A stretch of 64,000 nucleotides of DNA. It comes from a plasmid. The notes under the pieces were generated by a model. The model did no database searches and was not told the origin of the DNA. It was given only the letters and a program-made list of their open reading frames with translations. How positions within the stretch are numbered: position 1 is the first letter of the stretch; each line of letters begins with the position of its first letter. This document shows positions 27,601-61,449 of this stretch, piece by piece. The stretch lies in sequence record NZ_CP103154.1. The stretch is one strand, 5' to 3'. Both the position numbers and the translations under genes were made by a program.

Positions 27601-28581
27601 TTACACTACCATCCTTTCCCTTATCAACGGTATATTATCCCGTACCAAATTCAGAATCCGGTCATGATAGGCTGATAATTGGTTAGACTTTCCACGACAC
27701 TGGCACACCTCCATCCTGCTAAGTGAAAACTCCACCGTTTCCATGCGCCTTCCATCCACCGTTGCCGACATTATCAACGAATCTTCTCTCTTATAATAGG
27801 CGTTGCTGAATACACAATGATGCAGCAACTTTCCCTCTTTGTAAAAGTCCGAAAGGCTTTCCAATACCCGAACCATAATATTTCCATCCGCAAACGAAAG
27901 ATTAAAGAAACGTGATTTGGCAGCAATATAGTCTTTTTCATCCTTTTCAGAATATTTTTTCTTACATTTCCCCATCACCCAATCATGCGCTTCTTCTACA
28001 TTCAACGGACACAAATAATGAGGATTTCTCGCATCCAATTTATTTTCTATCAGCATATCCACATAGTCCAGCCACAAGTCCGCATCATGTATCACATAGT
28101 CATGTCTTAAACAGATTTTTACATACGTCCAATACTTATCTATACCGTATTTTCTCTCTAAAAATCTCAAGAACAAATTCATTTGCCCTGCCTTATATAA
28201 TATCTCCATCCGATTATCAGTTAATAATGTCATAAAGAAGGAACTCGGACAAATATCATAAAAGGCACCCTTAAATCCATTCCTCGTAAGTTCGGGTATC
28301 ACTTTCATTCTCGGATAGATAACTGCCGGGCAAATATCATAAATACGGTCATGATGCACATTCCGCTTACGCAATTCCAAAGAACTTCCATATATCCATG
28401 CATCGTAATAAAATATAGACATGCCCCGCAGCAAAGACAGCGTTTCTGTCTTGCCCTCTTTATTCATCCAACACTGTACCGCCTCAATTATAAAGTAATT
28501 AGCCGGAGACCCTTTTTCAGCCGGCAGTCCACCATAAAAAAACGGATAACTTGATATTGCTTGTATGTAGTAATCACACAA
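27601..28581 (-). CDS. PcfJ-like protein, C-terminal portion (apparent frameshift with 28488..28847)
   Basis: 326-aa ORF with a PcfJ-like conserved core; overlaps an upstream same-strand ORF by 94 nt. Confidence 0.6.
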   Translation of the reverse strand: MCDYYIQAISSYPFFYGGLPAEKGSPANYFIIEAVQCWMNKEGKTETLSLLRGMSIFYYDAWIYGSSLELRKRNVHHDRIYDICPAVIYPRMKVIPELTRNGFKGAFYDICPSSFFMTLLTDNRMEILYKAGQMNLFLRFLERKYGIDKYWTYVKICLRHDYVIHDADLWLDYVDMLIENKLDARNPHYLCPLNVEEAHDWVMGKCKKKYSEKDEKDYIAAKSRFFNLSFADGNIMVRVLESLSDFYKEGKLLHHCVFSNAYYKREDSLIMSATVDGRRMETVEFSLSRMEVCQCRGKSNQLSAYHDRILNLVRDNIPLIRERMVV

Positions 28582-28847
28582 AAATATTCTTTATATACAG
28601 CCGTCCTTTTCCTGCTATTCTCCAATTTCAGGTTCATACCGCAATGAGGACATTTACAGTTTTTCTTATCTTCCTTATCCCGCCATGTATGCCCACAATC
28701 CAAACAAAAGCAATTCCCCTTTGCATCACGCTTGAAATAATGCACAAAGCAATGTTTATAGGCATAACGCTTTTGAGCCTCTGAAACGGGAGCTAACTTC
28801 CTGCTCCCATTCACGATTTCCATTTGTAATTTTGTCTTGGGTTTCAT
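28488..28847 (-). CDS. zinc-ribbon N-terminal portion of the PcfJ-like protein (likely the same gene, frameshifted)
   Basis: CFCLDCGH...CKCPHCG zinc ribbon; 119 aa; its 3' end overlaps the 5' end of 27601..28581. Confidence 0.5.
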   Translation of the reverse strand: MKPKTKLQMEIVNGSRKLAPVSEAQKRYAYKHCFVHYFKRDAKGNCFCLDCGHTWRDKEDKKNCKCPHCGMNLKLENSRKRTAVYKEYFCVITTYKQYQVIRFFMVDCRLKKGLRLITL

Positions 28848-28848
28848 A

Positions 28849-29259
28849 TCAAAAAAGAGTTAACTGGGTTTGTACTTCGGTGTTGTTCTCACGTTTAGCT
28901 TGTTGACGCTTCTTCAACTTTGCCAATTCTTCCTCCTGCAATTTTTTGATAGCAGCCTCACGAGCCGCTTTCTTTTCTTCCTCTGACAATTCAACATGAT
29001 GATTTACGACTACATTACATTTCAATGGGCTACCCACCTCAATATTATCTTCCTGATAATAGTGCAACGCCATACCAAAAATTTCATCATCACTAAAACC
29101 ACAGCAACCGCTTTTCTTCACTTGGTTTAAAATATAGGTAATGCAATTATCTATATTCTTTGTAGGTTTTTGATAGACTGGAGCAAACAGACTATCCACC
29201 GCTGCCATATTATCAAGGTATGCCTTGATGGTACTTTTAAATTGTTCTGACACTTTCAT
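28849..29259 (-). CDS. PcfK-like protein
   Basis: 136 aa (MKVSEQFKSTIKAYLDN...CITYILNQVKKSGCCGFSDDEIFGMALHYYQEDNIEVG), the usual partner upstream of PcfJ-like genes. Confidence 0.55.
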   Translation of the reverse strand: MKVSEQFKSTIKAYLDNMAAVDSLFAPVYQKPTKNIDNCITYILNQVKKSGCCGFSDDEIFGMALHYYQEDNIEVGSPLKCNVVVNHHVELSEEEKKAAREAAIKKLQEEELAKLKKRQQAKRENNTEVQTQLTLF

Positions 29260-29447
29260 AGTATATCATTTTTAGATTTCATTTCACAATAAGCCAATTT
29301 CACGAGAAACAAGGAGAATAGGCAAATAAGAGCCAACAACGTAACCGACACAACCTTTATCGGACTTGGCGTTATTACCGCTCCGACAAACATAGCCACT
29401 GCACAAAGAGCGATGATGACCGAAAAAACAAATTGAATGATTTGCAT
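29256..29447 (-). CDS. small membrane protein
   Basis: 63 aa, two TM helices; first gene after repeat module copy A. Confidence 0.4.
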   Translation of the reverse strand: MQIIQFVFSVIIALCAVAMFVGAVITPSPIKVVSVTLLALICLFSLFLVKLAYCEMKSKNDIL

Positions 29448-29467
29448 ATACTTCTGCTACTTAGTTT

Positions 29468-30153
29468 GTTAAACTTCTAATTTTATGCTTCAGCTAGATT
29501 TAAAGACCTTTTTTTAAAACCCCTTTCCGGGATGGCCTTTTCTTTCTGCCGACTTTTTTTTTGAGCTTTCATGCCCCATCTGAGTTTATGAGCCTTTTTT
29601 TTACGGCACACAACAATAAGGAAGGAGGGATTAAGAAAAGTTTTGGACGACAAAAAATGTTGGGGACAGCGAAGCCGTCCGGCGTTATTTTTTCGGGACA
29701 AAGGGGCGAAGACCGGAACTCTTTCGTATCCATCCACCGAAATAAATTTGCCGTTCAAAAACAAAGGATCTCAGATGGAGCTATGAAAAAAGCACATTAG
29801 GGGAGGCAGAAAACAAGGAAAAGGGCAGTACGGAAAGTAAAACAAACCATACGGTTTTGCTTGCAAAACCGTATTCCTATCTCCCTGCCACAAGTGACAG
29901 GGGGGGAACGGGTTAGCAACGGACTGCCGGGACAAACGGTAAAAGGAAGGAACTGCAATACGGAAGAAGGAGGTTGTTTCGGCAATGCCGAAGCTCCGGA
30001 TGATGACCATTGCAATCCCGCCCACGTTTGGAACTTCTCTTTTCTGGTTTGCCCATAATCAGCCGCATAGCGGATGACTACGGGCAAACCGGGAATGAGA
30101 ACAGTCATTCCGATGAAGGGGAGGGTGGGGAAGAATACTGCGTGAACGCAAAA
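29468..30153. repeat. ~685-bp conserved noncoding module, copy A; structured-RNA or regulatory candidate
   Basis: Near-identical to 38571-39252 and 41639-42320; internal ORFs are not frame-conserved between copies; many hairpins; its left end lies about 20 nt from the start codon of the 29447 operon. Confidence 0.8.
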
Positions 30154-30159
30154 ACACTC

Positions 30160-30200
30160 TCGGATATGTAGCAAAAAAAAGCGGCACTAGGCCGCTTCAA
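30160..30200 (-). terminator. rho-independent terminator of the ssb gene
   Basis: On the minus strand GCGGCCTAGTGCCGC followed by TTTTTTTT. Confidence 0.6.
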
Positions 30201-31400
30201 TCATTTGCTTGCTTTTTTCTTTTTAGAGACAGCCTTCTGTTTAGGCTGATCCGGTTTTTCTTCTTCTTTTTCCGGAGCCGGATAAAACTTGGTGGCTACC
30301 ATCACAATGCGGTTACGCTTCTCCCCACTTTTAGAATCCGTCCATTCTTCCGGCTTAAAGTAGCCTTCAACGGTTATCAGCTCACCTTTTTTCAATACAT
30401 CGAAGGAATCCAGTGCTTCATTCTTTCTCCAGGCTTCAATCCCCATGAAAGCGGAAACATAAGAGGTTTCTTCACCTGTCTTGTCTGCACGGCTGACCGC
30501 GATAGAAAAGCGTGCTACGCTTGCTGTTTCAAAACTACGGATTTCTGCATCCTTACCGATAAAACCTGTTACTGCGAATGAATTTTCAATCTTTTTCATA
30601 TCTCTGATTTTTTAGAAGTTAATTAATCAATTTTACAGTGCAATAACTGATTGTTGGCTTTGGGGGACACCATGAAAAAAGATATAAATACTCTTTTTAT
30701 GCTGGCCGGAAAAAGGAAGATTTGTAACTTTTTTATTGGTGAAGATGGCAGCAAATAATTCGGGTTAAATACGCTTTTTATGCAAGGCAAAAAAAGGAAG
30801 ATTTCAGACGAATAACAACGTGGTGTTTGTGAATCGTCCCCTTATCCCCGTAAAAGGGGTTAGCAACAATCTATATTTGCAACGGAAAATGATTTGACTT
30901 CCCTAAAAAATGATATGAAAAAGACAAAACTTGAAAATCAGCAACAGGTTTGGAAAGGATGCAAAAAACAACCGGTCAGACAGCAAGCATGGCACATTCC
31001 GAAAATATGGTCAGCCGCCTATCGACACACCGGAAGAAACCTCTGCAATTCCTTTTAAAAAAATGAAGCCGAAGAATGAAGCATACAATATTCCACGTAT
31101 CGAAAAAAGTGACTGCACGATAAAATGAAAGGCTGCAACGGAAGAACAGACTTGCGGATTCTGCGGGGAGAACATAACCATACAGGCATACAGCCACTAC
31201 AACTGTTTCCGGAAAAAGAAGATTATACAACCGGAAAAACAGAAAGGCATCCACTCGGAGAAAAGCAAGCAAACGATTGAAGCGGACTGCCGATTTAGCG
31301 GCGAAATATCCGACTACCTATATACAGCCCTAAAAGGCTGGGGCATATGGGTAAGCAACAGACTGCCGGGCAAATAAAAGGAGAGTGGCATAGCCGCCGG
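30181..31400. repeat. segmental duplication, copy 1: ssb plus its ~700-bp upstream leader; copy 2 at 33379-34590
   Basis: Long collinear identity between 30181-31400 and 33379-34590, including the terminator, the ssb gene body (decayed in copy 2) and the upstream noncoding region. Confidence 0.8.
30201..30599 (-). CDS. ssb: single-stranded DNA-binding protein-like (OB fold), plasmid/ICE type
   Basis: 132 aa; FAVTGFIGKDAEIRSFETASVARFSIAVSR...ITVEGYFKPEEWTDSKSGEKRNRIVMVATKF; Lys-rich tail. Confidence 0.7.
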   Translation of the reverse strand: MKKIENSFAVTGFIGKDAEIRSFETASVARFSIAVSRADKTGEETSYVSAFMGIEAWRKNEALDSFDVLKKGELITVEGYFKPEEWTDSKSGEKRNRIVMVATKFYPAPEKEEEKPDQPKQKAVSKKKKASK

Positions 31401-31665: not shown

Positions 31666-32943
31666 TTAAGTTAATTGCAGCAAATCCAAATCATCAGTGA
31701 CCAATCCATCCAATACATGTTGGATTTTATCAAATATAGCCTTATCTATGCCATACGTGGCGCATAACGATTGAAATTTGCTTACAGCATCGAACACCTG
31801 TAATATCTTCTTTTCGGGCTCCTCTACAAAATCCTCGGCAAAGTTGACGAAATCACTTGTAGTCAAGGCAGACCTTTTGCCCATCACGCCCATCGAATGA
31901 ATGTGTGCTGAAGAATTTTCCCATGTATTTGCCGTGAACATTACATCATATGCAGGTGATAAACGCCATACCCCTGCCTTATCCATGATAAACGATATGT
32001 TCTTATTATGATCATCGGATATACCTGCGACATAATTAAATACCATTCTGATAAATATCTGATCTTTGTCTTCCTGGGGAAGTTTCAGAGTCTCTGCTAT
32101 CCAACACAGCTTCATATAATCATCTGCACCCGGCATAATGGCCGCAAGGGTCTGACTAAAGAGCTTTTCTCCATTCTTACGATCAAATCTTTCCGTTACG
32201 AAATGATTTCTTCCATCAATTTCTTTCAGGAAGCATGGCATCATGTTGATTCCCGCCGCCTTTGCCATTTCGCTATATACCATTTCTATCTCTGTGGTAG
32301 GAGAGTCATCTGCTTCTTTAAATTTGATGATATACTGCTTAAAATTTTCAGGCAAATCCACCTGGCCGGAACGAAACTCTTCCGTTTCGAGATTATAGGC
32401 AATCACTGCCTTCGGGCGCATGCCACCGGCAGAAGTTCCAAGATATATCAACTTTTTCATCGTGAGGCTATCCTCCGGTGATATGACAGCAGCATCTCGA
32501 TCATTATATATTTTAGAAGCCAAAGTTGCCAATGATGACATATTTACTGACTCATGGATGGCATCATCATTAAATTCCGGTTCAAATTCCAATGCTCCCA
32601 TAGCCCTCTTGCCAATATAAGAGAGCTTCAATAGAGGCAATGATTCCGTAACCTTTATATTATTATCCGTGAGCCATTGGTCAAATAGGGAAGCCCCCCA
32701 TTTGTCAGGAAGCGCATCTGCAAGAAATTCCGGAAGCCCTTGATATAATTTATCTTTATTCCCATAGAAAGACGCAAACAAAGGGGTTCTCTTAGGGTGT
32801 GTGGAAGGGCATATATCATAATCTTGTTTCCTATATTCATCCGTAAATTGGAATACAGAACAATGCTTTTCAAAGTCCCAATTCAATTTGCCAATGCAAG
32901 TCCCCCACAGATATACATTCACTATAATCGGCTCTTTCTTCAT
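31666..32943 (-). CDS. hipA: HipA-family serine/threonine kinase toxin
   Basis: 425 aa; GTSAGGMRPK phosphate-binding loop and DDHNKNISF catalytic motif; start overlaps the HTH gene stop (ATGA). Confidence 0.8.
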   Translation of the reverse strand: MKKEPIIVNVYLWGTCIGKLNWDFEKHCSVFQFTDEYRKQDYDICPSTHPKRTPLFASFYGNKDKLYQGLPEFLADALPDKWGASLFDQWLTDNNIKVTESLPLLKLSYIGKRAMGALEFEPEFNDDAIHESVNMSSLATLASKIYNDRDAAVISPEDSLTMKKLIYLGTSAGGMRPKAVIAYNLETEEFRSGQVDLPENFKQYIIKFKEADDSPTTEIEMVYSEMAKAAGINMMPCFLKEIDGRNHFVTERFDRKNGEKLFSQTLAAIMPGADDYMKLCWIAETLKLPQEDKDQIFIRMVFNYVAGISDDHNKNISFIMDKAGVWRLSPAYDVMFTANTWENSSAHIHSMGVMGKRSALTTSDFVNFAEDFVEEPEKKILQVFDAVSKFQSLCATYGIDKAIFDKIQHVLDGLVTDDLDLLQLT

Positions 32944-33278
32944 ACCATCTTACGTTTACCGTTAATTCTTTGTATTCTTTTACCTGTTTTTTCATTGATT
33001 AGGAAAGGGGAGTCTGGAAGTTCCGGAACCAAACCGACAACGCCTTCAAGAGTTCCACTTATACGCAAAATCTTAAGCAATGTACTTAGGGCAATATCAC
33101 TTACTTTACAAGATTCTATTCTCTTAATAGTAACGATAGATACTCCTGCCTTATCCGCAAATTCTTGCTGGGAAAAACAGCAGCTAAGTCTTATAGACTT
33201 AACTCTCTTGCAGATTTCCTTTACAATACATTCATCTGAAAATTCGTATATTGTATATGTATCATATAATCTTTTCAT
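32940..33278 (-). CDS. hipB: XRE-family HTH protein, HipB-like antitoxin
   Basis: 112 aa; HTH segment LSCCFSQQEFADKAGVSIVTIKRIES; immediately upstream of and overlapping hipA. Confidence 0.7.
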   Translation of the reverse strand: MKRLYDTYTIYEFSDECIVKEICKRVKSIRLSCCFSQQEFADKAGVSIVTIKRIESCKVSDIALSTLLKILRISGTLEGVVGLVPELPDSPFLINEKTGKRIQRINGKRKMV

Positions 33279-33378
33279 AGAAAAACATATTTAGGTATCA
33301 TTTTTGATACAAAAATACCGATAAATCTGAAAATCACCAAATTAAGAAACACTTTTTTTATAATCTTCTGCCGCATTA

Positions 33379-34590
33379 GCAAACGATTGAAGCGACCTTG
33401 TGCCGCTTCAATCGTTTGATTGCTTTTTCTTTTTAGTCCGGGGGTTCTTATTTTTCCGGAGTCGGGTAGAACTTAGTAGCTACCATCACAATGCGGTTAC
33501 GTTTCTCCCCACTTTTAGAATCCGTCCATTCTTCCGGCTTAAAGTAGCCTTCAACGGTAATCAGTACATCTTTTTGCAGTATCCAAAAAGCATAGCGGTC
33601 TTCCATCTTACTCTAGGCTTCAACTTTCATAACAGAGGAAACAAATGTTTTTTCTTCATTTATCTTGCCTATGCGACTGACCACAATAGAGAAGTGTGCA
33701 ACCTTTACTATTTCGAATAAATGGATTTCTGCATCCCTACAAATCCTGCCTGTTACTGCGAATGAATTTTCAATCTTTTTCATATCTCTGATTTTTTAGA
33801 AGTTAATTAATCAATTTTACAGTGCAATAACTGATTGTTGGCTTTGGGGGACACCATGAAAAAGATATAAATACTCTTTTTATGCTGGCCGGAAAAAGGA
33901 AGATTTGTAACTTTTTTATTGGTGAAGATGGCAACGAATAATTCGGGTTAAATACGCTTTTTGTGCAAGGCAAAAAAGGAAGATTTCAGACGAATAACAA
34001 CGTGGTGTTTGTGAATCGTCCCCTTATCCCCGTAAAAGGGGTTAGCAACAATCTATATTTGCAACGGAAAATGATTTGACTTCCCTAAAAAATGATATGA
34101 AAAAGACAAAACTTGAAAATCAGTAACAGGTTTGGAAAGGATGCAAAAAACAACCGGTTAGACAGCAAGCATGGCACATCCCGAAAAGATGGTCAGCCGC
34201 CTATCGACACACCGGAAGAAACATCTGCAATTCCTTTTAAAAAAATGAAGCCGAAGAATGAAGCATATCATATTCCACGTATCGAAAAAAGTGACTGCAC
34301 GATAAAATGAAAAGCTGCAACGGAAGAACTGACTTGCGGATTCTGCGGGAGAACATAACCACACAGGCATACAGCCACTACACCTGTTTCCAATAAAAGA
34401 AGATTACACCACCGGAAAAGCAGAAAGGCTCCACTCGGAGAAAAGCAAGCAAACGATTGAAGCGGACTGCCGATTTGGCAGCGAAATATCCAACTACCTA
34501 TCTACAGCCCTAAAAGGCTAGGACATATGGGTAAGCAACAGACTGCCGGGCAGTCACTCCGCTGAAAGGGTGGGTGGGAAAAAACTAAGT
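33379..34590. repeat. segmental duplication, copy 2 (see 30181-31400)
   Basis: Collinear with copy 1; carries the ssb pseudogene and a deletion variant of the structured module at 34508-34580. Confidence 0.8.
33420..33790 (-). pseudogene. degenerate second copy of the ssb gene
   Basis: DNA homologous to 30201..30599 but with indels and stops; no intact ORF. Confidence 0.6.
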
Positions 34591-34654: not shown

Positions 34655-35137
34655 TTACCCCACTTCAATTGATTCAACAAACTTCAACAACAAAGCGACT
34701 GTTACCGTATGAAATGAAAGCTGATTGAACAACTTATGCGCTTTCAGCATCTCAATAGCGGCTTCAGCCGTAACAACTCTCTGTTCATAAAGCCGAATTG
34801 TCGCATATAACTGGTCATTTGCGACAGGCCCCATTATTAGGTCATAGTCACCGTTTTCTCTTCCTCTGCGGTTGTTGACAACAAACTCCAGCCATTCTTT
34901 TGTTGCACCCATAAACCGAAGAACCGGATATTCCCTATCAAGAATATCATCGGGAACTTCATAAACAGAGACGATTGCTTTTTCGCTCTGTTCCCTGTTC
35001 TTCTTCAACAAAGCCCATTTTTTTGCTTGTTCAAAGTTGGTTGTCGTATAAAATCCCTTCCCAAAGTCCGTAGCCTTCCGTCCTTTCTGTATATTAGGGC
35101 GTTTCACGGTAACTGTAGATCCATGAAATAGTCTCAT
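34655..35137 (-). CDS. DUF3990-like protein (second member of a DUF3791/DUF3990 pair)
   Basis: MRLFHGSTVTVKRPNI...DFGKGFYTT N-terminus typical of this family; overlaps the upstream ORF by 4 nt. Confidence 0.5.
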   Translation of the reverse strand: MRLFHGSTVTVKRPNIQKGRKATDFGKGFYTTTNFEQAKKWALLKKNREQSEKAIVSVYEVPDDILDREYPVLRFMGATKEWLEFVVNNRRGRENGDYDLIMGPVANDQLYATIRLYEQRVVTAEAAIEMLKAHKLFNQLSFHTVTVALLLKFVESIEVG

Positions 35138-35583
35138 TTTCTTTTATTGATATAAGTCGTTATAGTATCTAATATATATTCGGGGTCTTGGGTATGAAGC
35201 ATTTCAAAAGTCTCATCCAAAAAATCAAAAACCCCATAGTCCGAAAACAACAACAAGGTTTCTTCCGCACTTTGTTTCTTTTCCTCCCTATAATTCTCAA
35301 TGCAGAACATCTTGAAAAGCAGGATCTTCGTGTCACCGTTATACCGTCGTTTTTCTTCTGTTTTTTCCTTCTCCAATGTTTCATAAAGCGACAATGTACT
35401 TGAATACCATAACTTGGTACTCTTATCCAGCAAAGATTTATACAACTTGGAAGAATATATATAATACAGTGCATCGCCTAAAGGCAATGCCTTTTTCTTC
35501 ATGACCAGTTCTACCAGCTCTCTCATCACGAATGGGAGCATGGTTGAGTCAAGTTCTCCTTGATTTTTATGAGTAATTTCCAT
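35134..35583 (-). CDS. DUF3791-like protein (partner of the DUF3990-like gene)
   Basis: 149 aa, gene pair with overlapping stop/start. Confidence 0.45.
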   Translation of the reverse strand: MEITHKNQGELDSTMLPFVMRELVELVMKKKALPLGDALYYIYSSKLYKSLLDKSTKLWYSSTLSLYETLEKEKTEEKRRYNGDTKILLFKMFCIENYREEKKQSAEETLLLFSDYGVFDFLDETFEMLHTQDPEYILDTITTYINKRK

Positions 35584-38559: not shown

Positions 38560-38570
38560 AGTCTTTTATC

Positions 38571-39252: not shown

Positions 39253-39370
39253 TTAATGGGATTACCAGTAACTCCAAGCGTTTTTTGCTACTTTTTTGGG
39301 GTGCTTGCCAAAAAGTAGCGGACAGCAAAATACCCTCCCTTCCCTAATCCAAAAGAAGGGAGAATGTGCT

Positions 39371-40047: not shown

Positions 40048-40076
40048 ACCAAAATCCTTTTTACATATTTATCTTG

Positions 40077-40802: not shown

Positions 40803-40817
40803 ACTTTTCTGACTTCA

Positions 40818-41081
40818 TTATTCACAACATTCTATATTCCTTGTGCCATAGATTTTATCAAAAGCCGCTTTTATCTCCGAGCGATATTTACAGTCCTTCT
40901 CAAAACAAAGTTGTTTTGTCCAAAAATCGAAATCAAAACCATCGGTATTATCAATCGTTACAGAAACATAATCAGTCATACCACTCTGACATACAACCGT
41001 ATGCCGATTTACACAAAAGTGGTCATTTAAAGCAGTTTCTTTTCGGGTAATGCGTTCTACCATCTTATCTATCCACTTCAT
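40818..41081 (-). CDS. hypothetical protein
   Basis: 87-aa Cys-containing ORF. Confidence 0.4.
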   Translation of the reverse strand: MKWIDKMVERITRKETALNDHFCVNRHTVVCQSGMTDYVSVTIDNTDGFDFDFWTKQLCFEKDCKYRSEIKAAFDKIYGTRNIECCE

Positions 41082-41137
41082 ACTTATAATATTTTATGTA
41101 ATTGCCCCATTCCAAGAGGCAGTTACGGTTATACTCA

Positions 41138-41617
41138 TTAAAAATCGTTCTCGTTCAAAAACAGCACATCGCCTTTCATCACCATCCAATTAATCTCACT
41201 CAGATGATAGCCACAATGCCCACTCAAAAAAATCTCAATCTCTTCAGTGGTCTGCAATCTCCTGTCTGGGCTTATCACCGCAACATTACCGGAATTACAA
41301 TCCAATACAGCCAGTTTCTCATAAGCCCACTCACCAAACTGGCAGAACTCGATAAAATTGGTATAGGTTATCCGTATGCTATTGTTTGCATCAAATTCAA
41401 GGGGTGACTTTGTAATGAATGAACCTGCATGATTCACCACCACAGAGGGGCTAATCTCTGCCAATGAAGATAAGCTGTCATCCCATCTAATCTCATAAAG
41501 GAAAAATCCTTTTGGCAATGAATTGCGGTCTATACGATAACTGGAAAAAAGACCGTCTATCGTTTCATTAATAACTAACTGTTCATAATCTCCTTCTAAA
41601 TAGTGTACTCGTGACAT
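41138..41617 (-). CDS. hypothetical protein
   Basis: 159-aa ORF; first gene after repeat module copy C. Confidence 0.5.
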   Translation of the reverse strand: MSRVHYLEGDYEQLVINETIDGLFSSYRIDRNSLPKGFFLYEIRWDDSLSSLAEISPSVVVNHAGSFITKSPLEFDANNSIRITYTNFIEFCQFGEWAYEKLAVLDCNSGNVAVISPDRRLQTTEEIEIFLSGHCGYHLSEINWMVMKGDVLFLNENDF

Positions 41618-41638
41618 AACTCGTTGTTTTTTGGGATT

Positions 41639-42320
41639 GTTAAACTTCTAATTTTATGCTTCAGCTAGATTTAAAGACCTTTTTTTAAAACCCCTTTCCG
41701 GGATGGCCTTTTCTTTCTGCCGACTTTTTTTTTGAGCTTTCATGCCCCATCTGAGTTTATGAGCCTTTTTTTACGGCACACAACAATAAGGAAGGAGGGA
41801 TTAAGAAAAGTTTTGGACGACAAAAAATGTTGGGGACAGCGAAGCCGTCCGGCGTTATTTTTTTCGGGACAAAGGGCGAAGACCGGAACTCTTTCGTATC
41901 CATCCACCGAAATAAATTTGCCGTTCAAAAACAAAGGGTCTCAGATGGGGCTATGAAAAACGCACATTAAGGGAGGCAGAAAACTAGGAAAAGGGCAGTA
42001 CGGAAAGTAAAACAAGCCATACGGTTTTGCCTGCAAAACCGTATTCCTATCTCCCTGCCACAAGTGGCAGGGGGAACGGGTTAGCAACGGACTGCCGGGA
42101 CAAACGGTAAAAGGACGGGGCTGCAATACGGAAGAAGGAGGTTGTTTCGGCAATGCCGAAGCTCCGGATGATGACCATTGCAATCCCGCCCACGTTTGGA
42201 ACTTCTCTTTTCCGGTTTGCCCATAATCAGCCGCATAGCGGATGACTACGGGTAAACCGGAAATGAGAACAGTCATTCCGATGAAGGGGAGGGTGGGAAA
42301 GAATACTGCGTGAACGCAAA
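41639..42320. repeat. ~685-bp conserved noncoding module, copy C
   Basis: Near-identical to copies A and B; flanked by a minus-strand operon on the left and a plus-strand operon on the right; a TAnnTTTG-like -7 box (TACTTTTG) lies just beyond its right end. Confidence 0.8.
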
Positions 42321-42423
42321 AACACAGTATGTCATCTTAAAACAATATCTTTAAAAAGTTTTTCAGAAGAAATGCTTACCAATATCCTAATAATTATTAC
42401 TTTTGATAACATAATACAACGAT

Positions 42424-42678
42424 ATGGAAAAGAAAAAGATTACAATAGAGGTAGAACCAGCTACAGCCGTAGCTACCGTCGGTTTATTGCGTGGGATATT
42501 TCCCAGTATCATCGAACAACTGGAAAGGCAAGCCGCAACAAACGGCAGCCCCTTAAAATTCAATAAAGTAGAAAATATGCAAGAAGTATTGGATGAGATT
42601 TATGAAAAGTGCATTGCCGAAACGAACCTCCGGGAGTTTGCCCAGGCGCACTTAAATAGTGACGGATTACCTAACTGA
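42424..42678 (+). CDS. hypothetical protein
   Basis: 84-aa ORF, first of three co-oriented small genes. Confidence 0.45.
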   Translation: MEKKKITIEVEPATAVATVGLLRGIFPSIIEQLERQAATNGSPLKFNKVENMQEVLDEIYEKCIAETNLREFAQAHLNSDGLPN

Positions 42679-42723
42679 TACAGAAATACGGAATCTGCCA
42701 GCCATCCTTATTCCAAATAACAA

Positions 42724-43050
42724 ATGGTACAGAATTACACACCTGTCATGTGGGATGACAAAGCATTTGCCTTTGTCCCCTACGAAGCATTCAGTGATTT
42801 GCCACATTATCCCAAAGAAAAATGTGAGCAAATTTGCAAAGAGCTGAACAGCCTTATAAGACTATGTACTTATAGGCCGAAAAAGGAAGATATTTATTTT
42901 CATCCGGTAAGTTATGTACGTCGTTCCGGAGGTTTCATAGTTACGGATAATCAGGCATCCTTTGAGAAATGCCCCTATCCTGCTTGCGCAGACCGTCATA
43001 GCTGCCAAAAAATATGTGATTTGATGAACCGTATCATTGAAGAGTCTTAA
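42724..43050 (+). CDS. hypothetical Cys-rich protein
   Basis: 108-aa ORF. Confidence 0.45.
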   Translation: MVQNYTPVMWDDKAFAFVPYEAFSDLPHYPKEKCEQICKELNSLIRLCTYRPKKEDIYFHPVSYVRRSGGFIVTDNQASFEKCPYPACADRHSCQKICDLMNRIIEES

Positions 43051-43064
43051 TTATATAAAATACC

Positions 43065-43442
43065 ATGGAACATCCAAACTCCAAATGCAGAATAGCACAA
43101 GCTGAATATTTAAGTCGGCTACCTGAAGAAGAACGGGAAAATAAGGCCAGAGATATTAGAATCGGAAACGCCAGCTATATTTACCACCAACAAGCGGTTC
43201 CAATCCAAGAAAACAGATTGATAATGTATTATAAAGAGTGGTTGGAAGGTCTTCCTCCCAACATTTCACGCCATATGAGAATGCTTGGATTTGAAGCATG
43301 TAAGACAATGATTCCGTTTACGAGATATGTGAACGAAAGAAACGATATTGGTATGCGTGACTGGATGCAAGAGCATCTTTCACCGAGTGACTTCAACTAT
43401 TGGCAGGAACTTTCGAAAAAAGCAGGTTCGCCAACATTTTAA
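43065..43442 (+). CDS. hypothetical protein
   Basis: 125-aa ORF. Confidence 0.45.
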   Translation: MEHPNSKCRIAQAEYLSRLPEEERENKARDIRIGNASYIYHQQAVPIQENRLIMYYKEWLEGLPPNISRHMRMLGFEACKTMIPFTRYVNERNDIGMRDWMQEHLSPSDFNYWQELSKKAGSPTF

Positions 43443-43503: not shown

Positions 43504-43776
43504 TTAGCGTTTAGTCATCTCTTCCCGCACCAGTTCCGTTTCTGTCGGGGAGAGTTTCGGCAATTTGACAGTTGCCGGACTTTCTAACTGGTAAGCCTTC
43601 ACCTCATTGATAAGCAGCTGCCAGTCAAAAAGAAATTCTTCGGAACAACCATGTTTACGATAAATTTCTTTTGCTGCTTCCAAAATCTCAGGAGCGCAAA
43701 AATCGTCTCCCTGAAAGACAACTGCCGGACGATCATTATTGATACAGTCTCTCAATAATCGTAACTGATCTTTCAT
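43504..43776 (-). CDS. hypothetical protein
   Basis: 90-aa ORF. Confidence 0.4.
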   Translation of the reverse strand: MKDQLRLLRDCINNDRPAVVFQGDDFCAPEILEAAKEIYRKHGCSEEFLFDWQLLINEVKAYQLESPATVKLPKLSPTETELVREEMTKR

Positions 43777-43788
43777 TGTGTTTACCTA

Positions 43789-44073
43789 TTATGCGTTCTG
43801 TTGTTTTACCATTTTCAAAAATTCGTCAGACGGTTTAAATGCCGGTATGTTATGAGCCGGAATAATCATAGTAGTATTCTTAGAGATATTCCGAGCTGTC
43901 TTTTGCGCTCTCTTCTTCACTATGAAACTACCGAATCCACGAAGATAGACATTTTCCTCCTTACCCAACGAAGTCTTTACCTCGTTCATGAATCCTTCCA
44001 AAACAGCAAGCACCGCTTTGCCGTCGATGCCGGTTCTGGCAGATATTTCCTTTACGATTTCCGATTTAGTCAT
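43789..44073 (-). CDS. HU/IHF-family nucleoid-associated DNA-binding protein
   Basis: 94 aa; MTKSEIVKEISARTGIDGKAVLAVLEGFMNEV...LRGFGSFIVKKRAQKTARNI...IPAHNIPAFKPS matches the HU fold signature. Confidence 0.7.
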   Translation of the reverse strand: MTKSEIVKEISARTGIDGKAVLAVLEGFMNEVKTSLGKEENVYLRGFGSFIVKKRAQKTARNISKNTTMIIPAHNIPAFKPSDEFLKMVKQQNA

Positions 44074-44172
44074 TTCTTTATAATTTGAAAATTAGCGTGC
44101 AAAGATAATTAATCCAATGGATTATTTAAAGTCTGGCATCCGCAGCAAGCCCTGCCTTCGCCCAATGAAGTG

Positions 44173-44571
44173 TTAAATTGTTGCGTATGGGTCAAGTTCC
44201 TTAATCCGCTTACACAAATAATCAAAGCGTTTCTTGGTAAGCGGTGTGAGTGTATCGAGGTTCTTGCCATCGAAATTCTCTCCGAAAATAAGGTCGTCCA
44301 CTCCTATGCCGTGATTGTAATTCTCGCGCACGCAATCACGCAGAATCCAAAGGTTATGCAGGTTCACCCAGTCGGCTGTAATGTTTCTGATTTTACTGAA
44401 CAGCAGCGCAGCAGTGTAAAGGTAGTGTCCGCAATGGTTGTAGTCATGCAACACCAGCTTGCCCTGGTAATAGATGTCGAAATCCTTGTTTTCTTCATCT
44501 TCCTTTGTATCGCAGTAGAAGAATGGAATGTCTTTCAGACCGTCCCAATTAATATAAGTAGTTGGCTTCAT
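44173..44571 (-). CDS. hypothetical protein
   Basis: Start trimmed to MKPTTYINW; 132 aa. Confidence 0.4.
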   Translation of the reverse strand: MKPTTYINWDGLKDIPFFYCDTKEDEENKDFDIYYQGKLVLHDYNHCGHYLYTAALLFSKIRNITADWVNLHNLWILRDCVRENYNHGIGVDDLIFGENFDGKNLDTLTPLTKKRFDYLCKRIKELDPYATI

Positions 44572-44620
44572 AATATCTTTTTTGAATACGCTACATAACC
44601 TGTTATTTGCACACTTTCCA

Positions 44621-44947
44621 TTATTCACAGAACATTTGATGAAACACTTCCTTCAGTCTTTTTATCTCACTGAAATTCAAATCTCCAATCTTTCTTTTCA
44701 GCCGGCTTTTGTCCACCGTGCGAATCTGATCCGTGGCTATCTCCCCATCACGCCCGGCTACAGAACACAGAACCCGGTAAGGATAGTTCCTTATGGTGGA
44801 GGTTATCGGAGCAATGACTACTATTGTAAGGTACATATTCAAATCTGAAGGAGTTACAACAACACATGGCCGTGTCTTTGCCATTTCACCCCCACGGGTA
44901 GGGTCTAACTCTACCCAATACACTCCATACTGTTCTACCATGTCCAA
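44621..44947 (-). CDS. mazF: MazF/PemK-family endoribonuclease toxin
   Basis: GVYWVELDPTRGGEMAKTRPCVVV N-terminal signature; 108 aa; overlaps the upstream antitoxin gene. Confidence 0.75.
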   Translation of the reverse strand: MDMVEQYGVYWVELDPTRGGEMAKTRPCVVVTPSDLNMYLTIVVIAPITSTIRNYPYRVLCSVAGRDGEIATDQIRTVDKSRLKRKIGDLNFSEIKRLKEVFHQMFCE

Positions 44948-45183
44948 TCCTCAAACTTTTCATCCTCAAACACATCAGGGATAAGCAACTCATCATCCCC
45001 ATTCTCATGGGCACGTTTGGCAGCTTCCGCCCATCCCTGCCGTGGTTGTGCCTTTATCACAATATTGTTCCCGTCCAAAGAAATGCTCACAGCCGATTTC
45101 AAGGACAAACGCAACTGTTTCAATATCTCGGAAGGAAGTATTATCCCCTTGCTGTTTCCAATCTGAATAATGTTTGTTACCAT
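44935..45183 (-). CDS. mazE: MazE/AbrB-family antitoxin
   Basis: IQIGNSKGIILPSEILKQLRL SpoVT/AbrB swapped-hairpin motif; 82 aa; acidic C-terminus. Confidence 0.65.
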   Translation of the reverse strand: MVTNIIQIGNSKGIILPSEILKQLRLSLKSAVSISLDGNNIVIKAQPRQGWAEAAKRAHENGDDELLIPDVFEDEKFEDWTW

Positions 45184-45617
45184 AATGTTATAACTTTAAA
45201 ATTGATTATCACAACACAAATATAGACAAAGTTATAACAATACCAAAAGAAAAGCCAACTTTTTTCCATTTTCACCGATAACCCGGCCAACGGCTGCACT
45301 CGTCGGGAGGCTAGTGCCCCCCCTTGCCGTGCGGCGCTCCCCGACCTATGATTCTTATCATGTCTTGTGTCCTTTTCTCCGCTTCTAACAAACAAATCTG
45401 CATAAAATATAGATTTGCGTTTCCATTTGAATTTTAGTTATTTGATACCCTAACTATGAATAGCAAACAGATAACTGATTTTTAAAACAGCAGAATGTTT
45501 CTGTTTTATTAAAATAAAAAGGGAACAAATTTTTAAGGTAATACTTACGGAAAAAACAGACTTTATAACGTTTCTTTTTCGTACATTTGCAACAATATAA
45601 TAAAAGCGAAACATATA

Positions 45618-46470
45618 ATGGAGAAGCAAGGAGAAATCATACTATACCAACCGGATGAAGCTGTAAGGTTGGAAGTACGTTTAGAAGATGAAACCGTTTG
45701 GCTCACACAAGCGCAGATAGCAGAACTTTTTCAACGTGACAGAACCGTTATTACCAAACATATAAATAATGTTTTTAAGGAAAAGGAATTGGAAGAGAAA
45801 AGCAATGTGCATTTTTTGCACATTGCTAATTCCGATAAGCCTGTCAAGTTCTTTAGTCTAGACGTAATAATTTCAGTTGGATACAGAGTTAAAAGCGTAA
45901 GAGGTACGCAATTCAGGCAATGGGCAAATAAAATTTTAAAAGAATATTTATTGAAAGGTTATTCTATAAACCAACGGCTCAATGACATGGAATATAGAAT
46001 GAACAATAGATTCTTCCAAATAGAGAAAACCATTGCTGAACATGATGCAAAGATAGACTTCTTTGTACGCACCTCATTGCCTCCGGTGGAAGGTATATTC
46101 TTTGACGGTCAGATATTCGATGCGTATAAGTTTGCTACAGATTTAATAAAGTCTGCCAAATGCTCACTTGTGCTTATCGACAACTATGTAGATGAATCCG
46201 TGTTACTCATGTTGAGCAAACGAAACAGTGGAGTATCAGCTACTATTTATACACAAAATAAACGCACAGCTCCAACTTGATTTAAACAAACACAATGACC
46301 AATATCCTCCCATTGAAGCTAGAACCTACAAAAGTAGTCATGACCGCTTCTTAATCATTGATAATACGGAAGTATATCATATTGGGGCATCGCTAAAGGA
46401 TTTGGGCAAGAAAATGTTTGCTTTCTCCAAACTGGAACTTCCTGCCCATACGATAATTGATGTATTATGA
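45618..46470 (+). pseudogene. RhuM-family protein gene, interrupted by a frameshift (ORFs 45618..46280 and 46228..46470)
   Basis: Both fragments align end-to-end with the intact 278-aa paralog at 60610..61446 (MEKQGEIILYQPDEAVRLEVRLEDETVWLTQAQIAELF... and ...QLQLDLNKHNDQYPPIEARTY...); the frame break lies in the A-rich tract near 46250. Confidence 0.7.
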
Positions 46471-46486
46471 AATAAGCTAATCACCC

Positions 46487-46816
46487 ATGCGAGAAGCGGA
46501 AGAGAATATAAAATTCAAGATGGAAATTGACGTATTGGTTCCCATTCCACGTACTGTCACCCGTGATTTCACCAGTTTGAAGCACCTGCGTCAATGGCAG
46601 AAACGGAATGACATCGATGGTTCTCTTTACTGTTTTGCACACCGGGAATACCTGCTCAACGAAAAGGGAGAATGGGAACAATTTACCGTTATCGGCAAAC
46701 AGGTAGTGACTATCGGAGAACTGGAAAGGCTTCTTTTGGCAATGAAGCAAAAGGGGTTCAACCAATACAGCCGTGAGGAATATGAAGAATTAATGTCTTC
46801 ATATTTGAAAAAGTGA
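46487..46816 (+). CDS. hypothetical protein
   Basis: 109-aa ORF between the RhuM pseudogene and the recombinase. Confidence 0.45.
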   Translation: MREAEENIKFKMEIDVLVPIPRTVTRDFTSLKHLRQWQKRNDIDGSLYCFAHREYLLNEKGEWEQFTVIGKQVVTIGELERLLLAMKQKGFNQYSREEYEELMSSYLKK

Positions 46817-46857
46817 AGAATTAAAACCTTCATTACACATTTAAATACGAAAACAGG

Positions 46858-47454
46858 ATGAAAATAGGATATGCCCGTGTTTCCACCAAGGAACAACATC
46901 TGGATATGCAACTGGAAGCGTTGAAGGCTGCCGGATGCGAGAAAATCTTCTCTGAGAAAATGACCGGACGTCAACAAAACCGCCCGGAACTGGATGCCTG
47001 CCTGAGCTTTCTCCGGGAAGGCGACACACTTGTCGTATATAAGCTGGACCGGCTTGGCCGTTCGCTGAAGAATATCCTTACGCTATTGGAAGATTTCAAG
47101 AATAGGGGCATCCAATTCACCTCACTGCAAGACAACATCAGTACGGAAGGCGCAATCGGCCAACTGATGAACAACATTCTCGGTGCTTTCGCTCAGTTTG
47201 AAAGAGACCTTATCTATGAGAGAACCCAAGAAGGCAGAAGAATCGCCAAGGAAAAAGGTGTCAAATTCGGCAGAAAGACACTTATCAACAAAAACAACAT
47301 CGCCAAGCAGAAAAGCTGCATCCAACTCTATGAATCCGGAACGCCGGTAAGGGAGATACAGAAAATATTAAACATAGGCAGTAGCGGAACAGTATATCGC
47401 CTATTAAGAAGGAATGGAATTGCGCTGAAATCCGAGAACAAAAATAACAAATAA
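46858..47454 (+). CDS. serine recombinase (Hin/Gin-like invertase/resolvase family)
   Basis: MKIGYARVSTKEQHLDMQ catalytic N-terminus with the Ser nucleophile and C-terminal HTH; 198 aa. Confidence 0.85.
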   Translation: MKIGYARVSTKEQHLDMQLEALKAAGCEKIFSEKMTGRQQNRPELDACLSFLREGDTLVVYKLDRLGRSLKNILTLLEDFKNRGIQFTSLQDNISTEGAIGQLMNNILGAFAQFERDLIYERTQEGRRIAKEKGVKFGRKTLINKNNIAKQKSCIQLYESGTPVREIQKILNIGSSGTVYRLLRRNGIALKSENKNNK

Positions 47455-47523
47455 CGAATAAACCTCTGCCCATCCTTCAAAGATGATTCTCAAAGATCGT
47501 CTGCAATTCCACCTCTCAGCAAG

Positions 47524-47560
47524 ATTATAGGAAAGTCCCCTTCACGGGGACTGATTTTTT
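47524..47560 (+). terminator. rho-independent terminator after the recombinase gene
   Basis: GTCCCCTTCACGGGGAC followed by TGATTTTTTTT. Confidence 0.6.
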
Positions 47561-47566
47561 TTAATT

Positions 47567-47965
47567 TTAATACAATAACTCCATGCACTCCTGTACCGCT
47601 TTTTCCAATGCTTCTTCCAAACAACAAAAAGCGTCCGCATTACTTTCGGAGTCATACAACACATAATCTCCAGCCCTCACAACCACATGCCAGACCGCCA
47701 CGTTTTGTTCTGTTTGAAACGTATATTCACGAGTCTGTATCATCCATTGGATACATGCTGCCAGTGTCGGGCACTCGCACATATACATCGGGGTATTCCT
47801 TCCCTCAATATCGGTGCGTAGCCTATCCTGTTTGTCATACCAATACTCACAAGGCACGTAATAGTATAATTCCTTCATCATAAGAGCTGTGTCGCTATTA
47901 ACCAATCTCTCTTTGTTGATTTGTGTAATCAAATTTTCCATATTAGCATTATTTAAGTTGAACAT
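47567..47965 (-). CDS. hypothetical Cys-containing protein
   Basis: 132-aa ORF; its start abuts the partial repeat module at 47986. Confidence 0.45.
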   Translation of the reverse strand: MFNLNNANMENLITQINKERLVNSDTALMMKELYYYVPCEYWYDKQDRLRTDIEGRNTPMYMCECPTLAACIQWMIQTREYTFQTEQNVAVWHVVVRAGDYVLYDSESNADAFCCLEEALEKAVQECMELLY

Positions 47966-47985
47966 CTGATTTATTCTTCAGCTAG

Positions 47986-48085
47986 ATTCAAGACCTTTTC
48001 ATTTTTTGTATCGGGAAGGTCTTTGGTCAGCCGACCTTTTTTTGATGTCATTCCCCATCTGAGTTCTGAGCCTTTTTTCGGCATA
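47986..48085. repeat. diverged copy of the first ~100 nt of the 685-bp module, copy D
   Basis: CTTCAGCTAGATTCAAGACC...GCCGACCTTTTTTTGATGTCATTCCCCATCTGAGTTCTGAGCCTTTTTTCGGCA aligns with the module's left end. Confidence 0.6.
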
Positions 48086-48312
48086 TCAAGGTCTGGATTG
48101 CAAGCAATAAGCCAAGTTTCACTTATGGAAAATGTCGGGAAGACACTTCTTCATCGTTATTTTCCATACAGTAAAGGCGCATGGCCGTAACTTGCCATTT
48201 GCGGAATCCCGAAACCTTTGCCGAGCAAAAAGCCGGACTCGGATCGGAGGAAAGAAGCCGGGGGAGGCAGCCCACAGAAAGGGCAATCCGATACAATCAA
48301 GAAATTAACCTG

Positions 48313-61446: not shown

Positions 61447-61449
61447 TAC

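Follow-up and report, generated by a model that had tools for sequence, protein, structure and literature searches.

Long hairpins with reverse Bacteroides promoter boxes head the gene units of a candidate establishment island in the conjugative megaplasmid pMMCAT

In the plasmids F and pESBL each operon of the leading region is headed by a stem-loop that acts as a promoter on single-stranded DNA (ssDNA), with the transferred strand (T-strand) as the template (PMC9849209, PMC12672017, PMC11541004). Promoters of this Frpo type are stem-loops of the T-strand in which the promoter boxes are reconstituted, and they are active only in the single-stranded state (PMC9849209, PMC12672017, PMC11541004). 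The mechanism has so far been described only in plasmids of the E. coli type, and a literature search found no paper linking Bacteroidales with single-strand promoters. Here the region between 27.6 and 48.3 kb of a 64,000-nucleotide stretch of plasmid DNA (sequence record NZ_CP103154.1; the whole stretch is called the window below) is described. The DNA belongs to the Bacteroidales plasmid pMMCAT, and the region, referred to as the island, may be an establishment (early-gene) island of that plasmid, expressed from hairpin promoters on the incoming strand; the chances that this reading is right are judged to be about even.

Over positions 27601-48100 the window matches about 20 complete plasmids (98-104 kb) with 100% identity; these come from Bacteroides uniformis, B. 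fragilis, B. ovatus, B. xylanisolvens, Parabacteroides distasonis and others, which identifies the element as pMMCAT. The entire window (1-64000) corresponds to NZ_CP081907.1 5262-69276 with 99.96% identity; the 19 indel positions found in these 64 kb are probably homopolymer-length errors or variants. pMMCAT is a 98-kb conjugative megaplasmid, ubiquitous in human gut Bacteroidales, and the papers devoted to it describe a complete apparatus for type IV conjugation, five pairs of toxin and antitoxin genes and a "putative anti-CRISPR system"; the origin of transfer (oriT), a leading region, ssb genes and single-strand promoters are unmentioned in them (PMC8102008; bioRxiv 10.1101/2024.04.29.590671). 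The plasmid is among the most widespread mobile elements of the human gut and moves between Bacteroides, Phocaeicola and Parabacteroides within single individuals, and its establishment in new hosts has so far been unstudied.

The elements found in the island resemble the Frpo/ssi elements (Frpo1/2 of F, ssi1-3 of ColIb-P9, classes 1-3 of pESBL) in being stem-loops of several hundred nucleotides that head early-gene units, ssb included, in carrying boxes within the stem that are oriented for the predicted transferred strand as the template, and in being present in several copies per plasmid, some of them nearly identical. They differ in the box itself, which in pMMCAT is the -7 element TAnnTTTGC of Bacteroides sigma-A and not the -35/-10 pair of sigma-70, and no sequence relation between the two kinds of element is to be expected. 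Furthermore, the -33 element of pMMCAT is weak, the box tends toward an internal loop, the promoter activity is predicted, and the island lies behind about 21 kb of type IV secretion system (T4SS) genes and does not adjoin oriT.

Two families of repeated modules head the units of the island. A repeated module of 685 bp at the head of operons had been noticed in a preliminary description of the DNA, and it is present in three copies of about 690 bp that share 97% identity (module A) and end 15-20 nt before the first start codon in three operons. The second family, module B, had been overlooked; it is about 1.1 kb long (30261-31372 and 33445-34552) and consists of a 770-nt ssb leader followed by ssb, the second copy of which is a pseudogene. 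The full-length copies in the window are the following.

29466-30157, minus strand: module A1, with a proximal hairpin at 29446-29819, a reverse -7 box TAAATTTG at 29743-29750 (plus strand) and a strongly structured distal half
30600-31372, minus strand: module B1, the ssb leader, with a hairpin of about 300 nt within 30600-30960 and a reverse box TATATTTG at 30872-30879 (plus strand)
33445-34552, minus strand: module B2, a copy of the ssb leader with the ssb pseudogene (33448-33783) and a reverse box at 34054-34061 (plus strand)
38585-39252, minus strand: module A2, with a reverse box at 38844-38851 (plus strand)
41637-42325, minus strand: module A3, with a proximal hairpin at 41621-41989 and a reverse box TAAATTTG at 41913-41920 (plus strand)

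The proximal half of module A (about 370 nt) additionally occurs as a diverged fourth copy at 47955-48280 and as a fifth copy outside the window, at the head of a DUF2958 operon. The modules can be considered non-coding, because their copies carry frame-breaking indels in homopolymer runs and because the annotated small open reading frames (ORFs) are inconsistent among the copies and unconserved in diverged plasmids; a coding role was rejected on these grounds. A search of the 64 kb against Rfam gave nothing at the gathering score, and at E <= 1 only microRNA-like hairpins at chance level and a weak Flavo-1 match outside the island. The sequence family of the module is narrow, since a two-block pattern scan of genome contigs returned three Bacteroides matches beside chance hits.

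Some further observations concern the copies themselves. The fifth copy of module A (NZ_CP081907.1 81684-82244) lacks the distal half and heads an operon of six genes. The ssb pseudogene at 33448-33783 is about 78% identical to the intact ssb in its middle part and about 97% identical in its 3' part and in the 770-nt leader, a mosaic that points to gene conversion, or to recombination, involving the two copies of module B on either side of the inserted hipBA. In metagenome contigs module A heads five cassettes, namely LPD28, a 63-aa peptide with PcfK, the phosphoribosyltransferase (PRTase), DUF2958 and a 202-aa protein. The LPD28 gene in these contigs is mostly a 60-aa frameshifted form (16 copies, compared with two to three of full length), and the 202-aa cassette (MRTGFEVNGDY...), otherwise unseen, follows module A in four contigs.

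Promoters were sought with the Bacteroides -7 consensus TAnnTTTG, the extended form of which is TAnnTTTGY (PMC8748976). Forward boxes lie 25-35 nt upstream of hipB, the HU gene, mazE, the IS4 transposase gene, the operon starting at 42424, rhuM' and the Rep-like gene. Upstream of the module-headed units the scan of the window found no canonical forward TAnnTTTG box, and a perfect box stands there on the opposite (plus) strand, 270-300 nt before the start codon: at 29743, 38844 and 41913 in module A, and at 30872 and 34054 in module B. No forward promoter consensus was found conserved in the modules, nor are matches of the sigma-70 type enriched. Across diverged copies the reverse box is kept and its two free positions vary (AA, CC, AT, AC; TAAATTTG, TACCTTTG, TATATTTG, TAACTTTG), so that by its pattern of conservation it behaves like a real -7 element. 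All 18 boxes examined read TAnnTTTGC and are followed by an A-rich stretch. Expression of the units by read-through is unlikely, because they are separated by terminators, located at 30178-30198 after ssb, at 39332-39365 after the A3 operon, and, as a hairpin with a T-run, in the distal half of module A.

The position of the box within the hairpin is equally regular. A polymerase that leaves toward the genes must copy the 5' arm, so the box is expected in the 3' arm, reading from loop to base. In 21 of 22 cases from pMMCAT and five other plasmids it does lie in the 3' arm, on the strand opposite to the genes. Pairing with the 5' arm involves 12-21 of the 22 nt downstream of the box and 10-26 of the 30 nt upstream of it, and the implied 5' untranslated regions (UTRs) measure about 40 nt in the ssb class, 60-90 nt, and 135-160 nt in the module A class. 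In module A the paired spacer is separated from the paired start region by an internal loop (about 10 x 11 nt), and this loop holds the box. The features of an ssDNA promoter that can be seen are a stable stem-loop upstream of the genes and a -7 box on the arm, and in the direction, that makes the plus strand the template. A search of the whole of pMMCAT for boxes carried by the 3' arm of long hairpins yielded five strong candidates, with energies from -45 to -56 kcal/mol and all on the plus strand. Two more, both weak (-32 and -33 kcal/mol), belong to the other strand, and one of these falls within the known invertible-promoter region of the extracellular polysaccharide (EPS) locus. The structured ssDNA promoters of which the preliminary description had spoken would find their counterpart here, in repeated modules that hold conserved long hairpins with boxes placed as in promoters of that type.

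The hairpins that head the units are 210-320 nt long, with z-scores of about -4 against shuffled sequences (-3.6 to -4.6). Module A as a whole folds with z = -8.6 as plus-strand DNA and z = -8.5 as minus-sense RNA. Its distal halves have the lowest 300-nt folding energies of the 64 kb (-60 to -67 kcal/mol, the mean being -32 with a standard deviation of 8), and its proximal half forms one hairpin of about 210 nt (z = -4.0), the base of which is the inverted repeat CCCCATCTGAG...ACGGC / GCCGT...CTCAGATGGGG. A 75% identical homologue on a P. vulgatus plasmid has the same fold (z = -3.6). The module B hairpin of the ssb leader, about 300 nt long and unrelated to that of module A, gives z = -4.2, and the A5 hairpin gives z = -4.6, with compensatory changes (alignment A4). 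In all five structured copies of the distal half, whether of module A or of its sequence-unrelated counterparts in two other plasmids, the plus sense is favoured by 5-15 kcal/mol.

Conservation of the fold was examined for module A in 14 copies from seven plasmids or contigs, among them pMMCAT, two further plasmid lineages, pBUN1, B. mediterraneensis and Bacteroides sp. CAG:443. The consensus comprises 62 pairs, with 96.9% of the cells paired compared with 92.7% in shuffled alignments. Changes on both sides occur in 13 pairs, compared with 6.5 +/- 1.0 in the shuffles, none of which (0 of 500) reached 13; when the 3' partner was slid by 1-3 columns, pairing fell to 44-61%. The compensatory pairs include the would-be promoter spacer (columns 105-111 with 209-216), and covariation is also seen in a further, small hairpin of the would-be 5' UTR. 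For module B, 108 pairs are kept across five plasmids, 21 of them with compensatory changes. Conserved hairpins, the placement and orientation of the box, and the occurrence of both beyond pMMCAT are thus matters of observation.

The same architecture is found in other plasmids. Homologues of ssb (41-72% identity) led to plasmids of B. finegoldii (NZ_OY725908), P. distasonis (NZ_OY725765) and Segatella copri (NZ_CP085933), whose islands contain ssb, SLOG, LPD11, DUF4313, radC and hypothetical genes, each behind a structured spacer of 400-500 nt. Of the 17 island genes in these three plasmids, 13 lack a forward box and carry a reverse one between -194 and -312 nt, about one being expected from the box frequency in the window; ordinary neighbours such as parA-like and hipB genes have forward boxes near the start. 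The upstream region of radC is hairpin-headed in pBUN1 and S. copri. In pMMCAT the corresponding region was rejected as a member of the hairpin-promoter class, as it contains a hairpin of about 155 nt with z = -1.9 and no reverse box. The cleanest layout, one hairpin per gene, is that of the P. distasonis island, where in the 52-kb plasmid (NZ_OY725765.1 38309-52438) phage tail sheath and tube genes adjoin six single-gene units with structured spacers of about 450 nt.

Whether the plus strand is the one that enters the recipient depends on the polarity of transfer, for which the following features matter.

4280-6078, minus strand: cognate relaxase of 466 aa (4280-5680; Pfam Relaxase PF03432) and a NikA/MobC-like gene (5677-6078)
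6079-6361: candidate oriT, placed here by adjacency: the gap that separates the mob operon from traA, AT-rich and containing short inverted repeats
53349-54679: second MobC (53349-53741) and a relaxase of 313 aa (53738-54679), part of a mobilisation module at 52074-54679

The minus-strand relaxase operon, made up of the NikA/MobC-like gene, the relaxase gene and a gene for a 327-aa protein, is divergent from traA/parA-like (6362-7117), and the gap at 6079-6361 would be the only plausible cognate oriT. By the rule that Samuel et al. 2024 (PMC11541004) use, a relaxase gene beside oriT belongs to the lagging region. In every plasmid of the family the relaxase gene and the island ssb are on the same strand, including two with a 49%-identical relaxase and a different gene order, and if the relaxase gene is taken as lagging, this co-orientation makes the plus strand the template of the island genes. 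The plus strand of the window would then be transferred with the traA side first; the T4SS block could not be transcribed from the incoming strand, and the island would be the first block that the plus strand templates.

The proposed course of events combines these elements. The island would act as a series of units (ssb; the 63-aa peptide gene with PcfK and PcfJ; PRTase and SLOG; LPD28 to a dead HsdM-like methylase; an acidic 132-aa protein; and the DUF2958 operon outside the window), kept apart by terminators and each under a long non-coding hairpin element. The relaxase would nick oriT beside its own operon, and the plus strand would enter the recipient 5' end first, traA side leading, as the relaxase-lagging rule predicts. 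Once single-stranded, the upstream elements would fold into the stem-loops of 210-320 nt seen in folding and covariation, with the 3' arm offering the -7 box TAnnTTTGC in or beside an internal loop and with the spacer, the -33-like region and the start region paired in the geometry described above. Host RNA polymerase would initiate at the hairpin, copy the 5' arm and proceed into the genes, yielding SSB and proteins of unassigned role. Synthesis of the complementary strand would remove the hairpin and switch the units off, the box then facing outward, and hipBA, mazEF, HU, the insertion sequence (IS) and the plus-strand genes would rely on ordinary forward promoters, active after establishment. 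The fuller version, in which the hairpins are genuine Bacteroidales single-strand promoters with a phylum-specific -7 box in a pre-opened loop, a toggle set by the state of the strand and structured distal halves that delay conversion to the double strand, is doubtful if all its parts are to hold. Doubt likewise attaches, as a whole, to the toggle, by which the box would drive establishment genes on ssDNA and, on double-stranded DNA (dsDNA), would produce antisense RNA running into the upstream unit or, in one copy, express the EPS invertase gene.

Several results weigh against an establishment island read from the incoming strand. The island starts about 21 kb, or some 25 ORFs of tra/T4SS genes, from the candidate oriT. 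De novo nick prediction in 6079-6361 found short inverted repeats and no recognisable MOBP nick motif; papers on Bacteroides oriT yielded no usable polarity. The proximal hairpins are near-palindromic and fold almost equally well in both senses. Among Watson-Crick pairs changed on one side only, G.U in the gene sense is favoured (11 columns versus 1), conserved G.T pairs favour the opposite sense, and wobble pairs and energies together give contradictory, hence ambiguous, results as to which strand is folded in the proximal hairpin. A -33-like TTTG, CTTG or TTTC lies 17-24 nt from the box in many copies and is weak or absent in many others. No known anti-defence family (ArdA, KlcA, Acr, PsiB and similar ones) was detected in 27601-48100 by Pfam, PHROGs or NCBIfam. 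The box is also a good outward-facing promoter element on dsDNA, and the EPS invertase gene has no canonical -7 box upstream of it other than the reverse box of the module copy outside the window, 273 nt before the ATG. The EPS invertase, six module-headed genes and tra genes were reportedly co-induced in metronidazole-treated mice carrying the established plasmid (bioRxiv 10.1101/2024.04.29.590671), so that the units can be expressed without obvious new transfer; the position of the box upstream of the invertase gene fits this reported co-induction of the invertase and the six genes.

The last three points are at the same time the strength of a serious rival, ordinary regulation on dsDNA, which is the main alternative and a real, if lesser, possibility. 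By this account the module would be a shared divergent promoter, the reverse box would drive an upstream or antisense transcript or the invertase gene, the forward genes would use a non-canonical or alternative-sigma promoter, and the hairpin would be an RNA leader or operator, the units being co-regulated with transfer or stress in donors. The strong structure of the distal halves in the sense of such a transcript, and the second small covarying hairpin in the would-be 5' UTR, agree with it. What it does not explain is the placement of the box in the 3' arm with spacer pairing kept by compensatory changes, nor the presence of all copies on the strand of the relaxase gene; moreover, conservation is found upstream of and around the box, whereas the region that would be transcribed is unconserved, missing in A4, A5 and pBUN1, and devoid of a conserved ORF, and no forward promoter consensus is conserved in the modules. 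Comparable elements are the CUP repeats of the pKM101 (IncN) leading region, reportedly described by Delver and Belogurov in 1997 as dsDNA promoters with a repressor site. These too are a repeated upstream element that heads several establishment or anti-restriction genes, with common control and shuffling of cassettes; the canonical box of pMMCAT differs in facing away from the genes, inside a conserved hairpin. The ssDNA and dsDNA models could also be compatible, the box serving the genes on ssDNA and facing outward on dsDNA. Much less probable is that the hairpins are priming sites for the plasmid Toprim primase, replication roadblocks or hotspots of cassette exchange, whether in place of a promoter role or in addition to it. 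Beside the island (25938-26963) there is a gene for a Toprim-domain protein, and in F transcripts from ssDNA promoters prime complementary-strand synthesis and one stem-loop is a roadblock (bioRxiv 10.64898/2026.01.09.698686). The modules are homogenised within the plasmid (97% identity) and carry different cassettes across plasmids, and the ssb duplication is a mosaic; yet a conserved, correctly oriented -7 box with free middle positions, and the lack of another promoter for the units, would be left unexplained.

Another alternative, unlikely in our estimation, is that the island is a plain accessory or maintenance region, which would enter late or in an untranscribable sense, through another oriT or with the relaxase side first. 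The polarity adopted above rests on inference, the island does contain plain maintenance functions (three toxin-antitoxin pairs, HU, a resolvase), and the second MobC/relaxase pair (53349-54679) could supply an oriT, which, if used, would give the opposite strand and polarity for the island. Against this stand the co-orientation of the island with the cognate relaxase gene, conserved across diverged plasmids, the concentration of single-strand-specific features in the island and on one strand only, and the fact that related plasmids keep the island beside T4CP (type IV coupling protein)/Toprim genes. The second pair itself looks like an acquired mobilisation module: it adjoins a transposase fragment, and the inverted repeat GGCAGAA...TTCTGCC lies upstream of the module. 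Hardly credible, finally, is a phase-variable invertible promoter, in which a plasmid recombinase would flip the segment of about 190 bp flanked by CCCCATCTGAG...ACGGC / GCCGT...CTCAGATGGGG between an OFF state, the form present here, and an ON state. The modules share with the invertible promoters common in Bacteroidales, for example at capsule loci and in the pMMCAT EPS locus, the inverted repeats around a TAnnTTTG promoter that reads away from the genes, and serine recombinase genes are present at 46858-47454 and 59730-60368. Flipped sequences were constructed and searched for, and none was found, either at 173 places in 29 plasmid records or in metagenome contigs, where 0 flipped junctions stand against at least 98 native stretches; inversion is excluded for practical purposes. 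Unlike the invertible promoters, the modules have no adjoining invertase gene, and their interior is paired with compensatory changes, for which inversion has no need; the known EPS invertible promoter folds weakly (-33 kcal/mol, compared with -45 to -56 kcal/mol for the modules).

If the hairpins are single-strand promoters, they would be the first outside the Proteobacteria-type Frpo/ssi elements, and conjugation would have as one of its general principles an early "zygotic" expression from the incoming strand, evolved independently around a very different recognition code of RNA polymerase. Early genes, and with them candidate anti-defence genes, in plasmids of Bacteroidota and perhaps in their integrative and conjugative elements would then have a simple signature: a TAnnTTTGC in reverse orientation, 200-300 nt upstream of the gene and within the 3' arm of a long hairpin. 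In pMMCAT, should the hairpins be single-strand promoters, it would provide a short list for defence assays: PcfK/PcfJ, PRTase and SLOG, LPD28, the dead HsdM-like protein, DUF2958 and the acidic 132-aa protein.

Gene content was read by Pfam and compared with the RefSeq annotation. The genes of the island, beyond the modules listed above, are as follows.

27601-29447, minus strand: unit A1, coding for a 63-aa membrane peptide, PcfK (28849-29259) and PcfJ (27601-28847) (Pfam; RefSeq)
30178-30599, minus strand: ssb (132 aa, 30201-30599; Pfam SSB) with an intrinsic terminator (30178-30198)
31666-33320, minus strand: hipBA (HipA/HipB, 31666-33278; Pfam); the promoter scan shows a canonical forward promoter made up of TATTTTTG at 33310 and a TTTG lying 20 nt upstream
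34655-35583, minus strand: DUF3791/DUF3990 pair (Pfam)
35877-37232, plus strand: IS4-family insertion sequence with a transposase gene (36020-37183; Pfam DDE_Tnp_1) and 40-bp terminal inverted repeats
37377-38559, minus strand: unit A2, coding for a PRTase-like protein (188 aa, 37993-38559) and a YpsA-type SLOG protein (37377-38009; Pfam YpsA)
39332-41617, minus strand: unit A3, coding in order for LPD28, an 87-aa protein, an HsdM-like methylase, a 107-aa and a 117-aa protein, with a terminator at 39332-39365
41138-41617, minus strand: LPD28 (Pfam), acidic, with an isoelectric point (pI) of 4.5
40077-40802, minus strand: N6_Mtase-like (HsdM-like) protein of 241 aa (Pfam)
42398-43442, plus strand: three small genes (42424-43442) with their own forward promoter TACTTTTG at 42398 (promoter scan)
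43504-45230, minus strand: a 90-aa protein, HU (43789-44073), a 132-aa protein and MazF/MazE (44621-45183) (Pfam), with forward promoters at 44100 (HU) and 45217 (mazE)
45618-47454, plus strand: RhuM fragment, a 109-aa protein and a serine recombinase/resolvase (46858-47454) (Pfam)
47567-48280, minus strand: unit A5, an acidic 132-aa protein (pI 4.4) with the diverged proximal hairpin (47955-48280; nhmmer, fold) and a degenerate box AACCTTTG

The preliminary description had presented the region as a leading-region island, in which almost all genes are small and on the minus strand, and as a source of candidate anti-defence genes. Most of the genes are indeed on the minus strand; the IS4 transposase gene (36020-37183), the genes at 42424-43442 and the rhuM'/109-aa/resolvase group (45618-47454) are on the plus strand. 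The inventory given there (two ssb genes, ArdC, HU, PcfJ/PcfK, RadC, hipBA, mazEF, DUF3791/DUF3990) is borne out by Pfam, and the methylase-like protein does lack its catalytic motif, keeping its SAM-binding motifs, with GQFFTP, DSCCGSGRM and YGSDID present and (N/D)PP(Y/F/W) (NPPY) absent. For the pair of SLOG and PRTase, SLOG is confirmed by Pfam YpsA, and PRTase is weakly backed (HGPRT, E = 0.015; the RefSeq name is phosphoribosyltransferase). The leading-region interpretation agrees with the gene classes, with the co-orientation with the relaxase gene and with the hairpins and their boxes; lying 21 kb from the likely oriT and not being the first DNA to enter, the island is not a leading region in the strict sense, which would adjoin oriT on the side opposite to the relaxase gene and fall within roughly the first 30 ORFs.

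In comparison with the anti-defence islands of leading regions (PMC11541004), the pMMCAT island has similarly small, uniformly oriented genes, ssb, a methylase-like gene, toxin-antitoxin genes and structured upstream regions, with an orientation that makes the T-strand the would-be template. It differs in lying outside the first ORFs after oriT, in the lack of detected ArdA, KlcA, Acr or PsiB, in a methylase-like protein without the catalytic motif, and in having ArdC outside the island (21849-23042), in the T4SS operon on the other strand. The company typical of leading regions is nevertheless present (ssb, the HsdM-like protein, hipBA, mazEF, DUF3791/3990 and a polyvalent-protein domain), and judging from it the unit products may plausibly act against host defences. 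The toxin-antitoxin modules and HU have ordinary forward promoters and more the look of maintenance functions than of early ones. For the hypothetical proteins, searches of PHROGs and NCBIfam gave nothing beyond an HsdM-like match of the 241-aa protein, and a sequence search of the PDB gave YpsA for SLOG (2nx2, 4e-10) and, for the PRTase-like protein, marginal purine PRTase matches only. Structure prediction, proposed earlier as a route to anti-defence functions, provided no functional lead from two models. LPD28, by its Pfam name a domain found in the "polyvalent proteins" that phages and conjugative elements encode, has 392 relatives, mostly stand-alone; its AlphaFold model is confident (predicted local distance difference test, pLDDT, of 93-97 for the domain), with no fold match in PDB or BFVD. 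The acidic 132-aa protein has close relatives only, and its model is unusable (pLDDT 47). It is also worth mentioning that the PcfJ frame is broken in the window copy (27601-28581 and 28488-28847); in RefSeq pMMCAT it is a single ORF of 415 aa.

On both sides the island is bordered by blocks of different character. The plus-strand block that extends for about 21 kb after traA codes for TraG/VirB4, TraM, TraN, a DUF3945 protein, ArdC, SSB, the coupling protein and a Toprim protein, with its last ORF ending at 27502. It is followed by a bidirectional terminator at 27572-27593, beyond which, up to about 48.3 kb, the majority of genes are on the minus strand. The nearest neighbours are listed below.

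21849-23042, plus strand: ArdC-like protein (ArdcN and MPTase-PolyVal zincin peptidase; Pfam), within the T4SS/T4CP operon
23020-23529, plus strand: second SSB (Pfam), within the T4SS/T4CP operon
23414-25360, plus strand: T4CP (Pfam)
25938-26963: Toprim-domain protein, adjoining the island
48900-49595, minus strand: RadC (Pfam), followed by a 32-bp iteron array and a Rep-like gene

The iterons pointed out in the preliminary description are real and have a period of 32 bp. Two paralogous Rep-like proteins (376 and 402 aa, 46% identical) are encoded at 7961-9427 and 50224-51616, each beside a 32-bp iteron array with the common core GGGACACTTCTACACAACT; one array is located upstream of its own Rep-like gene and the other directly past the stop codon of its own gene. 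Together they may constitute a dual replicon, or a pair serving replication control. The weak Flavo-1 RNA match, below threshold with 26.9 bits compared with the gathering score of 42, lies at 49781-49864, in the interval from RadC to the iterons. Downstream of the cognate relaxase gene, a direct repeat of about 170 bp (2810-2980 and 3265-3436, 86-95% identity) overlaps the 3' end of the gene for the 327-aa protein. An inverted duplication of rhuM, the 109-aa gene and the serine recombinase gene (45618-47454 and 59730-61779, 72-75% identity) brackets about 14 kb with RadC, the iterons, the Rep-like gene, the second mobilisation module and radical-SAM genes, a segment that may be invertible or translocatable.

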